Part shown: piece by piece, positions 37,502-41,435 of the stretch
How the letters are laid out: each line of letters begins with the position of its first letter
Numbering within the stretch: the stretch's first letter is position 1
Assembly (NCBI GenBank): GCA_054600435.1
Contig: BAAIJX010000014.1
Span: 62,001-126,000, forward strand
DNA: 64,000 bases
DNA from: Neophaeotheca triangularis
Taxonomy: Eukaryota
Reading direction: 5' to 3'
Translations under genes and position numbers: made by a program
Notes under the pieces: generated by a model
Databases searched by the model: none
What the model saw: the letters and a program-made list of their open reading frames with translations, nothing else
What the model was told of the DNA's origin: nothing

Positions 37502-38908
37502 CTACTCGGCCTCAGCAGGCACCTGGTACCCAGCCTCGGCCAACGCATCCTTGAATCCTTCAAGCGCCTTCTGGATATCCGTACGCTTTGGATCCGTAAC
37601 CGAAACACCCATATGCCCGAACCGCACATATTTGGCAGCAATTTCCTTGTGCAAGCCGCCGGCGAAAATGACACCCCTGGCGATGAGCTTGGGCAGGACG
37701 TCCGGCGGGGTCATGCCGTCGGGCAAGTAGATTGCGGACATGCCGTTGGCCTGGTTGGCAGGGTCGGAAGCGAGCTGCTTGAGCCCCATTGCGGCGATTT
37801 GTTTCTTGACTGCCTGGCTGTTTTCGCGGTGGATGCGGAAGCGGTCTTCGAGCGAGCCGGCGAGGATTTGCTTGAGGGCCGTGTTGAGAGCGTGGATGAG
37901 TTGGGGTGACGGGGTGGCGAAGTACGAGGGCTTGCCGGCTTCGTAGTTTTGCATAACGGGGATCCAGTTTTTCCAGCTGGCGAAGTAGGTTGCTGGCGGG
38001 GATTTGCGGTTTTTGAAGGATTCAATGGCTTTGCCCGAAGCCATAACGATGGAGAGGCCGGCCGGGCAGCCTATGGCTTTTTGGGAGGCGGTGATGACGC
38101 AGTCGAGGCCCCATTCGTCGAAACGCAGTTCTTCGCACCCGACGCTGCAGACGCCGTCGACGACTACGAGGGTCTGTGGGGAGACGCGCTTGACCATGGC
38201 AGTGAGGTCTTTGACTTCGCTGAGGACGCCCGTGGAGGTGTCGGTGTGGGTTACGGTTATGACTTTGTAGGACTTTTCTTTCAACGCCTTCTCGATCTCG
38301 GGGAGCTGAGGACGATCGCCAATGGGGGCTTTGAGCTGGGTTGCCTTGACGCCGTACGCCTCGAAGCAGTCTGCAAAGCTGTCGGCGAAGTAACCGGTGT
38401 GCAGGACGAGAGCGTTGTCACCAGGCTCTGTGAGGTTGGCGGCCACCTGATCCCATCCCAGAGTACCGGACCCGGAGATGATGAATGGCTGAGCGTCTGG
38501 GGAGCTGGAAATGAAGAGCTTCCGCAGCATGGTCAAAGTCTCGCCAAACAGCTTCACGAACGGGGCGGAGACGTGGCTCTCGCTGTAGTGCGACATGCTG
38601 TTGAGGACCTCATCGTCGAATTCGATGGGCCCCGGGATGAGGAGGGTCGGGTGGGGTGCTTGGCTGGACATGTTGGTCTTCTTCTCTTCTGCTTCAACGG
38701 GGTTCTGTTGCCTGTCCTTTTCCGCTTGATCGTCTTGCTGTTTCGTCTGAGTGCTAAAGTGTCGACGAGAGTTGGGTTGGATGGGGTTGTAGTCGACGTC
38801 GTCGCTGGGGCTGCTGTTGCGCTCGTGGGAGAAGGGAGTGTTGAGGGGGACTTGAGAGTTGTCGGTAAAGTGTCTGGAGATGAGGGAGAGACGGTCTTTG
38901 GGAGCCAT
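37502..38908 (-). CDS. AGX1: Alanine-glyoxylate aminotransferase (class V PLP enzyme) with N-terminal PTS2
   Basis: LLIPGPIE, GSGTLGWD, VTHTDTSTGV, VVDGVCS, TASQKAIG (PLP lysine), YFATP, RFGHMG; RLSLISRHF follows the first AUG. Confidence 0.93.
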   Translation of the reverse strand: MAPKDRLSLISRHFTDNSQVPLNTPFSHERNSSPSDDVDYNPIQPNSRRHFSTQTKQQDDQAEKDRQQNPVEAEEKKTNMSSQAPHPTLLIPGPIEFDDEVLNSMSHYSESHVSAPFVKLFGETLTMLRKLFISSSPDAQPFIISGSGTLGWDQVAANLTEPGDNALVLHTGYFADSFADCFEAYGVKATQLKAPIGDRPQLPEIEKALKEKSYKVITVTHTDTSTGVLSEVKDLTAMVKRVSPQTLVVVDGVCSVGCEELRFDEWGLDCVITASQKAIGCPAGLSIVMASGKAIESFKNRKSPPATYFASWKNWIPVMQNYEAGKPSYFATPSPQLIHALNTALKQILAGSLEDRFRIHRENSQAVKKQIAAMGLKQLASDPANQANGMSAIYLPDGMTPPDVLPKLIARGVIFAGGLHKEIAAKYVRFGHMGVSVTDPKRTDIQKALEGFKDALAEAGYQVPAEAE

Positions 38909-39375
38909 GGGGAGTCGACGTAGGTCTCCTACTTGTAGTAGAGCTGGCCGGAGTCGCAGCGGGGCACGAGGCGCGCGAGCGAGAAGGCGGGGCAAATGGG
39001 ACGCCAGCTTGACGGCGATGACGAAAACGATGGAGAGAGTGGACGGGAGCTGCGGTCAACAGGAGGTAACGTGAACTTCCATTAACTCTTCTTCACCTTC
39101 TTCCTGCTGCTTGCTCTTTTGGTCAGTAGTGGCGACTAACGTTAGCTGAACCCGAAAGAAGCTTGGAAAGTGGCATCTGTTTTCCTCTAACAATAATTCT
39201 CCCCCCAAAAGCGAAGTCGGGGGGAGCTTCTCCACAAGGGCCGTCGGCAGTTCTTCGTTGACGACAAGCAACGCCGGGAATAAATCAATCAATTAACAAA
39301 TTAATAAAAATAATACCAACTTGGAATTGTATTATACCTGATCTGTTTCATCAGAGTCCTTGCTACACCCACTCT

Positions 39376-41435
39376 CTATGCCAACAACAAGATCCCAGCA
39401 ACGAGAGCACTCCACGACCCAACCAACGAGCCACCAGTCCCGTCAGCCCCGCCCTCATAAGGTGCCGGCATTTGACTATGACTAGGGTTAGGAGAAACAG
39501 CACCATTCCCATCCCCAGCCGCCGAAGTCTGCCCAGGATACGCCGAAGCCGTCGCGCCCCCAGTGGCAGTCGCAACACCATCACCACCCACAGTAGCATT
39601 CCCCGGTAGCGGCAACGCCCCACCACCGTTCTCGAGAACAACATTCCTCACCCTCTCCCAAAAATCACAAACCCCGTAATCGCCCGTGATCAACGCGTTC
39701 GCAGAACTGGCGCCATCCTCCGCAATCACGCCCTGCGCGCTCGCGACAATGGAACCAGGGTCGTCCTCAAACGGTTCGTTGATGGCGTTGTTGAAAGGCT
39801 GCCAGTCACTGCCGGGCTCCCCGTTGGCGGCCATGTTGGTCCAGAAGCCGACGAATTCGGCGCTGAGAGCGCGTTCCGAGGCTGTGAAACTGCAGTTGCC
39901 GTTCGGTAGTGGTTGGTTCTCCGTGTTGCCGAAGATGTAGGGGATTTCCGCTGTGTGAGCTGCGCCGAGCAATGGGAGACCGTCGACGGAGATGCCTTCG
40001 AACCACGGGCAGGTGGGTTTTTGGCTCCATTGGTAGGAGTAGGCGATGCCATTGTTGGCGGCTGTCGCGCGCAGGGCGTTGTATGTTGGGCATATGAAGT
40101 TGGACTCTGTAATTACCCGGTCGAGGGCGCTGAAGGGCGGGAAGGCCGTGTTGTTGAAGCTTGAGACTGGGTAGCGGTCGAGGACCAAGGAAGCCGCGGG
40201 GCCGAATTGGGCTTGCATTCTGGCGGTGTAGATTTCTGGCGTGATAGATGTGGGAGATCCGGCCGACAGAAGGATCAGGAGAGTCCCTTCGTTGGAGTCT
40301 GGGAAGGCACTGATTAGTTTCGGGCTGGCTAATTGGTAGTGATGCACTCACTCCAGCCCATGATAAAAGGTACTTGAGCGCCCACGTCGTTCGGCTGGAC
40401 TGGAATGATATCGCCGTCGACAATGGCGCCCCAGCCGTCAAAGACGTATCCATTGTAAGAGGGCACGCCGGTTGGAGGTAGGGTAGCGTTGAGATCTGAC
40501 ACGTCGAGGGACCTCAAACATTCCGCCTACAGGCTGTCAGCATCGATAGTCCACCAGCTCAGACTTGACATAGACTCACATCACTACAACCAATGCTTTG
40601 GGCCCACGATGCGCCTTGAGCGTTTGCAGATTCGGCCAATGGGTAAATACCTCCAGCCCCGGACTGCGCAGCACCCCCACGGATAAGGGATGAGATCCCA
40701 GGCAGAGTACCAATGGCGTAAGCATCGCTTGCTCCAGCAGACTCGCCGAACAAAAGTACCTTGGACTACGAGCGCGTCAGTCGACCGTCTTCGTAATCGA
40801 TTTTATTCGTGAGACTTACAGGATCGCCACCAAAAGATTCGATATTACTGTGAACCCACTCAAGAGCGAGCAGCTGATCTTGAATTCCCATATTTCCTTG
40901 AATGCCCTCATCACTATACGCCAGAAATCCCAAGGGACCCAAGCGGTAAGCAACATTCACTACAATTGAGTCAGTGGCGAGATTACAGCCATCATAAGTT
41001 GGGTTGTTGATGCTGCCAGCGCTGTTGCCTCCCCCATGCAACCATACTTTGACAGGGAGGTCTTGAGCATCGGCTGGCACCCAAATGTTCAAGAAGAGGC
41101 TAGTTAGTTAATTAGTATCAGTATAGAGTTTTCGAGACCAGTATTTGTATCTACCAATCCTCGGAGGCGGCTGTATCTTCAATGAAGCCGCTGAATTGCG
41201 GACAGATTGCGCCTTGCTGGGTAGCGTCACCTCCCAACTCGCCTTCGTACGGCTGGGGCGGGGCGAAACGAAGGTCACCAATTGGGGGATCTGCGTAAGG
41301 TATGGCGTAATAGTAAGAAGCGTTAGAGGATTCACATTGCCCACCCTCGAGAAGGCTGCCGTTGAGAGTTACTTGCGCCGTGCTGAAGGCAGCGAAGAGT
41401 GCTGTTGAAGCCAGAGGCTTAAAAAGACTGCCCAT
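39376..41435 (-). CDS. Secreted type-B carboxylesterase, 5 exons, probable GPI anchor
   Basis: Signal-like MGSLFKPLASTALFAAFSTA; SEDCLFLN across an intron, WLHGGG, YRLGPLGF, GESAG, NEG, AAHTAEI; Ser/Thr/Gly linker and hydrophobic C-terminus. Confidence 0.88.

Follow-up and report, generated by a model that had tools for sequence, protein, structure and literature searches.

Among the described enzymes that owe a targeting signal to the choice of start codon, several stand close to the case discussed here. In Ustilago maydis, the type 2 peroxisomal targeting signal (PTS2) of the 6-phosphogluconate dehydrogenase Pgd1 lies in the 5' leader of the message and is made by non-AUG initiation, as was shown experimentally (Kremp et al. 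2020, PMC7214817). Dual-localised fungal aminoacyl-tRNA synthetases have a leaky start, either a weak AUG or a near-cognate codon, followed by a mitochondrial targeting sequence and then by a strong AUG in the same frame (Wallace et al. 2020, PMC7049704). The 70-kDa heat-shock protein of watermelon has two in-frame AUGs, the first of which leads to a plastid presequence and the second to a PTS2 (Wimmer et al. 1997, described in Ast et al. 2013, PMC3798809). The product of mammalian AGXT, the alanine-glyoxylate aminotransferase (AGT) gene, goes variably to mitochondria and/or peroxisomes (Danpure 1997, cited in PMC3798809 and PMC4585086), and a fungal AGT, Magnaporthe oryzae AGT1, is peroxisomal and needed for appressorium function (Bhadauria et al. 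2012, PMC3338719). Here we describe the AGT gene of the Dothideomycete Neophaeotheca triangularis, in which a putative mitochondrial-type leader, a PTS2 and the enzyme itself appear to be stacked behind three start codons. The gene lies on the minus strand of a 64,000-nucleotide stretch of contig BAAIJX010000014.1 (positions 62,001 to 126,000), which we refer to throughout as ‘the window’; all coordinates are positions within it.

The gene is intronless, and its stop-to-stop frame (37502..39055, minus strand) comprises 517 codons. The Pfam family Aminotran_5 (PF00266) matches residues 155–469 of this frame (E 4.6e-22). The closest database proteins are Dothideomycete alanine-glyoxylate transaminases (Elasticomyces, Recurvomyces, Teratosphaeria and Hortaea), the best of which are 70–74% identical over 97–99% of the query, the 468-residue form, and many close relatives carry the UniRef name ‘alanine--glyoxylate transaminase’. 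By sequence, then, the gene is a member of the class-V alanine-glyoxylate aminotransferase family, and activity on glyoxylate and alanine is presumed from the family names. An earlier note on this DNA had described an aminotransferase with three stacked starts, and the coordinates, codons and peptides that it gave are all present on the minus strand. Its ‘about 50’ open codons upstream of AUG 38908 number 49; the CTG at 39007 stands in the strong context claimed for it (aagCTGg); the 7 Arg and single acidic residue, an Asp, are there over 33 residues; AUG 38908 is followed by RLSLISRHF, AUG 38671 opens the core with MSSQAPH, and SRRHFSTQ, further down, contains R-R-H-F-S. The features are collected in Table 1.

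Table 1. Features of the aminotransferase gene, in the direction of transcription
Feature	Position	Strand	Basis or remark
TGA closing the frame upstream	39056..39058	-	no in-frame ATG between TGA and CTG 39007
Start 1: near-cognate CTG, A at -3, G at +4 (gtcaagCTGgcg)	39005..39007	-	sequence; homologous codon in lineages
33-codon basic, acid-poor extension, putative mitochondrial-type presequence	38909..39007	-	7 Arg, 0 Lys, 1 Asp
Start 2: ATG with C at -3 and G at +4, a weak context (ctccccATGgct)	38906..38908	-	opens M-A-P-K-D-R-L-S-L-I-S-R-H-F
PTS2-type nonapeptide R-L-S-L-I-S-R-H-F	38867..38893	-	residues 6-14 from ATG 38908, 39-47 from CTG 39007
Block V-P-L-N-T-P-F-S-H-E-R directly after the PTS2	38819..38851	-	L71, T73, P74, S76 invariant in alignment A1
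R-H-F-S, R-x-F-S/G motif	38753..38764	-	sequence; alignment
Start 3: ATG, strong context (A at -3; accaacATGtcc)	38669..38671	-	first core codon, opens MSSQAPHP; M129 invariant in alignment A1
Class-V aminotransferase core (alanine-glyoxylate aminotransferase) through stop codon	37502..38668	-	Pfam and relatives; no intron

We propose that a single mRNA carries the three nested, in-frame starts, and that ribosomes scanning from its 5' end would use them in turn. A small share would begin at CUG 39007, a codon that is near-cognate and stands in the best context, and make leader, PTS2 and enzyme, a product presumably bound for mitochondria. More would initiate at the weak-context AUG 38908, which places the PTS2 near the N-terminus and should direct the product to peroxisomes by Pex7-dependent import. 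The rest would reach the strong AUG 38671 (ATG3) and make the bare enzyme, which might stay in the cytosol or enter peroxisomes as the partner of a PTS2-bearing subunit. For the window gene, we lean somewhat towards this picture as a whole, three starts and three destinations together. Its generalisation, an ancient three-step translational divider across the Pezizomycotina in which codon identity (CUG or AUG) and Kozak context co-evolved to fix the mitochondrial, peroxisomal and cytosolic shares, is offered tentatively, as possible rather than probable. Were there such a divider, changes in the stringency of start-codon selection (brought about, for example, by eIF1 or eIF5 levels, or by stress) would re-partition glyoxylate metabolism without any change in transcription.

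The CTG is in frame and in good context, and no in-frame AUG precedes it back to the TGA at 39058-39056. By itself, the open frame amounts to no more than chance, because this DNA is rich in G+C and a second frame is likewise open over the same stretch, for 112 codons (38754..39092). What lifts the upstream frame above chance is the comparison with relatives. We scanned metagenome contigs with the alignment, which gave 435 confirmed matches, and kept 80 loci, numbered with the prefix ‘L’; the anchor I-P-G-P-I/V-E-F/Y is present in 68 of the 80. Deduplication left 48 distinct loci with a recognisable PTS2. Eight were dropped for a contig end or for unclear sites (L010, L043, L044, L055, L058, L073, L075 and L080), and the remaining 40, together with the window, were grouped by eye into 25 lineages.

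Two positions stand out in these lineages. Site 1, which corresponds to the window's CTG 39007, is CTG in 18 lineages, ATG in three and GTG in none, and was not found in four; A at -3 and G at +4 accompany 16 of the 18 CTGs. Site 2, which corresponds to the window's ATG 38908, was found in every lineage as CTG (14), ATG (10) or GTG (1), and all 15 of the CTG and GTG codons have a purine at -3 and G at +4. In Pezizomycotina, A at -3 and G at +4 are of importance to initiation at near-cognate codons (Ivanov et al. 2017, PMC5487733). Four other conserved Leu positions, used as a control, draw on five different codons, with CTG in 21 of 89 cases (0.24); at this rate, finding CTG at site 2 in 14 of 14 cases would have a P of ∼2e-9 if the lineages were independent, a value that ignores kinship and so overstates the significance. 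In 13 of the 25 lineages, the stretch from the nearest upstream stop to the PTS2 is free of in-frame ATGs. The stop before the site-1 CTG can be very close: one codon before ATT-CTG in L034 and L039, six codons in L013 and twelve in L001.

The strength of the start codon and the quality of its context compensate each other across lineages, as has been described for the dual-localised tRNA synthetases of fungi (Wallace et al. 2020, PMC7049704). Of the ten lineages with ATG at site 2, five have a pyrimidine at -3, the window (C) among them; those with CTG or GTG there always have a purine. At ATG3, the -3 position is A in 22 of the 25. Among the Sordariales each of the three starts is an ATG, with T, T and A at -3 (weak, weak, strong), and it is from the first that annotated Chaetomium, Corynascus, Podospora and Cladorrhinum proteins run, as in MVLLPEVSRSLFRRLRVPASMPRQ..ARLSLISRHL. 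If these codons are used as we propose, the swaps between CUG and AUG, with their compensating contexts, form a natural series for learning how start strength sets the shares of different organelles. One in-frame ATG was set aside. In L010, the first 81 nucleotides, which contain this ATG, bear no relation to the 1.5 kb of upstream DNA in the 90%-identical L007, and the contig is a probable chimera; its break falls exactly after the site-2 codon, at the contig end, and an alternative first exon is the other possibility. Artefactual reads similar to this case are described by Kremp et al. (PMC7214817).

Models and open reading frames (ORFs) of relatives that reach upstream share the pattern L-A-A-P-x-L-x-R-R-L-L..R-x-P-P..F-K-L-A-P-K-D/E-R-L-S-L-I-S-R-H-L, and nothing before it is conserved. 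The window's Met 38908 is Leu in many of these models, and their first Leu is Met in a few (e.g. MAAPQLFF.. in P0009). In alignment A1 (17 rows), the Leu of the window's CTG and the Ala that follows it fall on the shared L-A, and this Ala is invariant. We compared five close pairs of loci: L006/L007, L003/L056, L062/L063, L071/L077 and L015/L019. In the 90 nucleotides upstream of site 1 there are 0.18 substitutions per site (19/28/29 by codon position), and four of 19 gaps are multiples of three. Between site 1 and site 2 there are 0.076 substitutions per site (4/6/11), and all seven gaps are multiples of three, a contrast with the upstream DNA that gives a Fisher P of 5e-4. From site 2 to the core, where gaps were not tallied, there are 0.107 substitutions per site (24/14/80), and the third-position excess is seen also in pairs with no ATG at site 2. 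There is thus strong comparative support for the extension being protein-coding in the family, with coding beginning near site 1, and we think it very probable that the family's extension is translated from the conserved CUG. The earlier note had called for an alignment of upstream regions across relatives; at the level of the family, the one made here has the conserved open frame, the near-cognate codon and the Arg bias for which it looked, and the frame is conserved as protein, beginning at a CTG of conserved identity and Kozak context that is ATG in some lineages.

The conservation might instead belong to a DNA or RNA leader element, with nothing upstream of ATG 38908 translated in any species. 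A CTGGC motif does survive out of frame in one lineage, and a second conserved non-coding motif, CTGCA(A)GGTAC, lies further upstream in relatives. We consider an element of this kind highly improbable as the whole explanation, given that indels keep the frame between the two sites (7/7, versus 4/19 upstream) and that codons vary while residues are kept. Moreover, ATG replaces CTG in some lineages, with annotated proteins starting there, and the 13 lineages that lack any ATG would have nothing to start a strongly conserved PTS2 region. The motif CTGCA(A)GGTAC itself occurs upstream of the extension in L001, L003, L005, L006, L007 and L011, in different frames, and reads L-Q-G-T in the database models P0010, P0012, P0015, P0035 and P0036; an element of the promoter or the leader is the probable reading. 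The motif was not found near the window gene, its 12 matches in the window (at most two mismatches) comparing with 16 expected by chance. In L001 it is preceded by the hexamer CCTCGG, which we take to be the site of a fatty-acid regulator.

An upstream coding exon spliced onto the extension was considered and rejected: the codons before the Leu are I, K, N, T or D and do not supply an AG end, the upstream DNA is unconserved and its indels break the frame, and the candidate intron would be only ∼23 nucleotides in L001 and ∼27 in the window. Elsewhere in the gene, a frame break directly after S-M-S-H-Y/F in many lineages (L015, L017, L030, L032, L034, L037, L043, L060, L063, L071 and others) resembles a conserved intron position; the window gene and its nearest relatives, L001 and L014, are intronless there. 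Upstream of the extension, an ATG at 39082 in the gene frame is followed after eight codons by the TGA at 39058-39056; if transcribed, this would be a short upstream ORF ending 48 nucleotides before the CUG. A second ATG upstream, at 39176, begins an ORF of 17 codons in a different frame.

The PTS2 is strongly conserved. Residues R55, L56, L58, S60, R61 and H62 are invariant in alignment A1, and of the 182 database relatives whose core Met is preceded by 45 residues or more, 121 match the strict PTS2 pattern, mostly as R-L-S-L-I-S-R-H-L, and 144 a broad one. The strict consensus is R-(L/V/I/Q)-x-x-(L/V/I/H)-(L/S/G/A)-x-(H/Q)-(L/A) (Kunze and Berger, PMC4585086); the variant given by Bhadauria et al. 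2012 (PMC3338719) allows F at position 9. The PTS2 extension occurs in Dothideomycetes, in Lecanoromycetes and in the Lichinomycete Peltula; in Leotiomycetes (Diplocarpon, Rhynchosporium and Lachnellula); in Sordariomycetes (Neurospora, Podospora, Chaetomium, Coniochaeta, Xylaria and Hypoxylon); and in Eurotiomycetes (Aspergillus, Penicillium, Talaromyces, Histoplasma, Blastomyces, Paracoccidioides and Cyphellophora). Judged by these sequences, the signal that the earlier note placed downstream of AUG 38908 is conserved across the Pezizomycotina. It stands close to the N-terminus of the product, and we think it very probable that it works as a PTS2.

The block V-P-L-N-T-P-F-S-x-E-R, directly after the PTS2, is conserved as much as the PTS2 itself across Pezizomycotina classes, and may serve as a contact for a receptor or co-receptor, or as a spacer. 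At the other end of the protein, many relatives among P0123–P0222 terminate in -QKA, -KKA or -AKGL. The window protein ends in -PAEAE, and the N-terminal PTS2 would thus be its only recognisable peroxisomal signal. A Histoplasma protein annotated ‘aminotransferase, putative’ (KAG5294259.1), peroxisome-enriched and sensitive to pex7 (PMC13343957), was considered and discarded; it is not the AGT orthologue, which is KAG5298338.1. Neither KAG5298338.1 nor the word ‘glyoxylate’ occurs in those proteome supplements of PMC13343957 that were examined; the raw tables use gene identifiers that cannot be mapped, and the absence offers no support and is weak counter-evidence.

The leader in front of the PTS2 has the composition of a mitochondrial presequence. 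Motifs of the type R-x-F-S/G, with Arg at -2 or -3, mark places where presequences are cut, and the one at 38764-38753 is a candidate for such a site; R-x-[FYL]-[SGAT]-x lies no more than 45 residues ahead of the core Met in 74 of the 182 extended relatives. In the window, R-R-H-F-S lies ∼85 residues from the CTG, which would imply a long presequence. Presequences are N-terminal, rich in Arg and nearly free of acidic residues (PMC4585086), and this is what the window (Table 1) and its relatives display: the site-1 peptides of 23 loci contain 87 Arg and Lys versus four Asp and Glu in 472 residues, while the linker after the PTS2 contains 149 versus 152 in 1,112. The 11-residue helical moment of the window extension is 0.86, an uncalibrated value. 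For the leader being mitochondrial, we put the chances at about even. The ‘mitochondrial-like presequence’ of the earlier note stands as far as its basic, acid-poor composition and the conserved R-x-F-S/G motif go; its destination remains an inference.

The extension might instead be translated and yet not be a mitochondrial signal. It could tune the PTS2, by masking it or by affecting the binding of Pex7 or its co-receptor; it could set the stability of the protein; or it could simply supply the start of the PTS2 form where a species has no AUG at site 2. The PTS2 directly follows the extension, and site 2 is a CTG in 14 of the 25 lineages, where an upstream CUG could offer a second chance to make the PTS2 form; the extension is only 12–15 residues long in some lineages. 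Even so, we think a non-mitochondrial role unlikely. The excess of basic over acidic residues is what a presequence would have; site 2 keeps a start signature of its own, made up of CTG, ATG or GTG together with a -3 purine and a +4 G, and this speaks for a separate product; and mammalian AGT is itself mitochondrial and/or peroxisomal (PMC3798809, PMC4585086).

Out-of-frame ATGs are depleted from the leader: three are present between site 1 and ATG3 in 27 loci (6,900 nucleotides), compared with 81 in an equal length after ATG3. A first-order Markov model (Markov-1) of the dinucleotide content of the leader predicts 36 ATGs in any frame, and 14 were observed in 23 loci, nearly all of them in-frame site-2 codons. 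The depletion fits leaky scanning. The isoforms could also come mainly from alternative transcription starts, that is, from long and short mRNAs. Mammalian AGT uses alternative starts (PMC3798809, PMC4585086), and in some fungal genes transcription starts between alternative start codons (Wallace et al., PMC7049704). This we judge improbable as the main source. A lack of out-of-frame ATGs is expected if ribosomes scan through the region and is needless if the mRNAs are separate, and the same holds for compensation between start strength and context; the two mechanisms can, however, coexist. The earlier note had left the choice between leaky scanning and alternative transcription starts undecided: the depletion of out-of-frame ATGs fits leaky scanning, and ATG3 is invariant and in strong context. 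The note's reading as a whole is partly supported, the three compartments being predicted destinations.

RNA-library contigs of near-identical organisms, present as small shares of metatranscriptomes, cover 37507-38864; the data do not reach 38865-39700. These contigs (X1–X4) have no splice joints over 37507-38864. Record 3 of X1 runs from 38219 to 38864, and since it extends 193 nucleotides upstream of ATG3, this codon is probably internal and not at the 5' end of the message. RNA libraries may contain DNA, and X1 and X2 represent one sample.

Several observations weigh against the three-start picture, or against parts of it. At 33 residues, the window extension is longer than that of any relative (about 12–27), and it has one Asp. 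It can be aligned with that of the nearest relative, L001, only over the first ∼13 residues, and the gaps between the two (8, 2, 3, 4, 10, 10 and 5) do not keep the frame; constraint is thus shown at the level of the family, and only weakly in the lineage to which the window belongs. The window PTS2 fits the strict consensus at all specified positions but the last, where it has F and most relatives have L. The word ‘mitochondrial’ rests on composition and an uncalibrated helical moment. Downstream of the CUG, no RNA hairpin of the kind that can aid near-cognate starts was found (z +1.2). Site 1 was located in the loci partly by seeking CTG-GCN, which makes its assignment partly circular, and the lineages, grouped by eye, share ancestry, so that the P values overstate their independence and are upper bounds on significance. 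Some lineages appear able to do without the leader. Site 1, as noted, was not found in four. In a lichen-type lineage, L017–L028 (12 loci, four distinct sequences), ATY-CTG-GCG lies one base out of the PTS2 frame. There it opens an ORF of 9–20 codons that overlaps site 2; the choice lies between loss of the leader in this lineage and a different role for the motif, for instance as the start of a short overlapping or upstream ORF.

These differences raise the question of whether the window's upstream frame is a relic, its CTG disused and translation beginning at AUG 38908, or at 38671 alone. The window has a real ATG at site 2, so that the PTS2 form needs no CUG; the extension has diverged from that of L001 and grown; and one lineage has lost the frame. 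A relic would not be expected to keep A at -3 and G at +4 around its CTG, however, nor 33 intact codons with 7 Arg and a single acidic residue. It would also not be expected to remain clear of out-of-frame ATGs, and none is present between 39007 and 38671, where the sole ATG is 38908. We therefore think it very unlikely that the frame is a relic, and continue to favour its use in the window as one of three starts.

The gene models of this enzyme disagree with one another. The database model of the window gene is the 389-residue form that begins at the third ATG. Among 119 other listed relatives, 26 start at the core Met, 32 with a Met at most 16 residues before the PTS2, and 29 further upstream; the remaining 32 are partial, or the motif pattern failed. 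Some models are stretched to unrelated upstream ATGs. The prediction in the earlier note that gene callers would miss the CUG form was well founded, as the window's own model and the 26 truncated relatives attest. Models from the third ATG lose both signals, and the predicted location of a key glyoxylate enzyme would consequently be wrong in many fungal genomes.

Full-text literature searches found no paper describing a PTS2 or a non-AUG start on a fungal AGT. The N-terminal signals of this enzyme go unmentioned in the available portions of Kremp 2020, Ast 2013, Bhadauria 2012, Ivanov 2017 and Wallace 2020. ‘Aminotransferase’, ‘glyoxylate’ and ‘peroxisom-’ are absent from the main text of Wallace et al., and the first two also from the supplement examined (PMC7049704); AGX1 is not mentioned in the main text of Monteuuis 2019 (PMC6582344). 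Dual targeting by alternative starts is itself well known. The new elements here are the enzyme itself, a presequence-type leader stacked with a PTS2 behind two starts that can be tuned, and how deeply the arrangement is conserved.

How, then, does this gene compare with the systems with which we began? As with Pgd1, the product is a metabolic enzyme whose conserved PTS2 is encoded ahead of the annotated AUG and, in many species, has no in-frame AUG to start it; in both, near-cognate starts give, or would give, a peroxisomal isoform beside a cytosolic one. Pgd1 uses an AGG-AUU tandem and has two destinations, whereas the aminotransferase has a conserved CUG and two stacked upstream starts, the outer of which adds a presequence-like leader. 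Pgd1 was tested experimentally; the window gene, in which the PTS2 start is an AUG, is known here from sequence alone. If our reading is correct, AGT would be the second enzyme, after U. maydis Pgd1, with a PTS2 made from non-AUG codons. To our knowledge, it would also be the first in which two stacked upstream starts place a presequence-type leader before a PTS2.

The likeness to the fungal aminoacyl-tRNA synthetases lies in the order of a weak and then a strong start, in leaky scanning, and in the repeated exchange of weak AUG and near-cognate codons in fungal evolution (PMC7049704). The synthetases have two products, for the mitochondrion and the cytosol, and no peroxisomal signal; the aminotransferase has three starts and a PTS2. 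The watermelon heat-shock protein, too, has an organellar presequence directly before a PTS2, with an internal start codon between them, but this is a plant protein with a plastid leader, both of its starts are AUG, and there is no third (PMC3798809). AGT1 of M. oryzae belongs to the same fungal orthologue class as the window enzyme. It was localised by way of its C-terminal residues 340–385, ending in QKA and taken as a PTS1, the C-terminal type of signal; full-length fusions gave no signal, and the study considered neither an N-terminal PTS2 nor an alternative start (PMC3338719).

Mammalian AGT shares with the window gene the enzyme family and the proposed pair of organelles, as well as an N-terminal leader that is put in or left out by the choice of start. 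Its peroxisomal signal is C-terminal and of the PTS1 type, and takes the PTS1 route (PMC2120593), in contrast to the N-terminal PTS2 of a window protein that ends in -PAEAE. There is also a difference in the codons. The starts of mammalian AGT are AUGs, and they are used with alternative transcription starts. Mammals thus re-target AGT between mitochondria and peroxisomes by other means and, if the picture drawn here for fungi is true, evolution would have converged on one metabolic problem from two directions.

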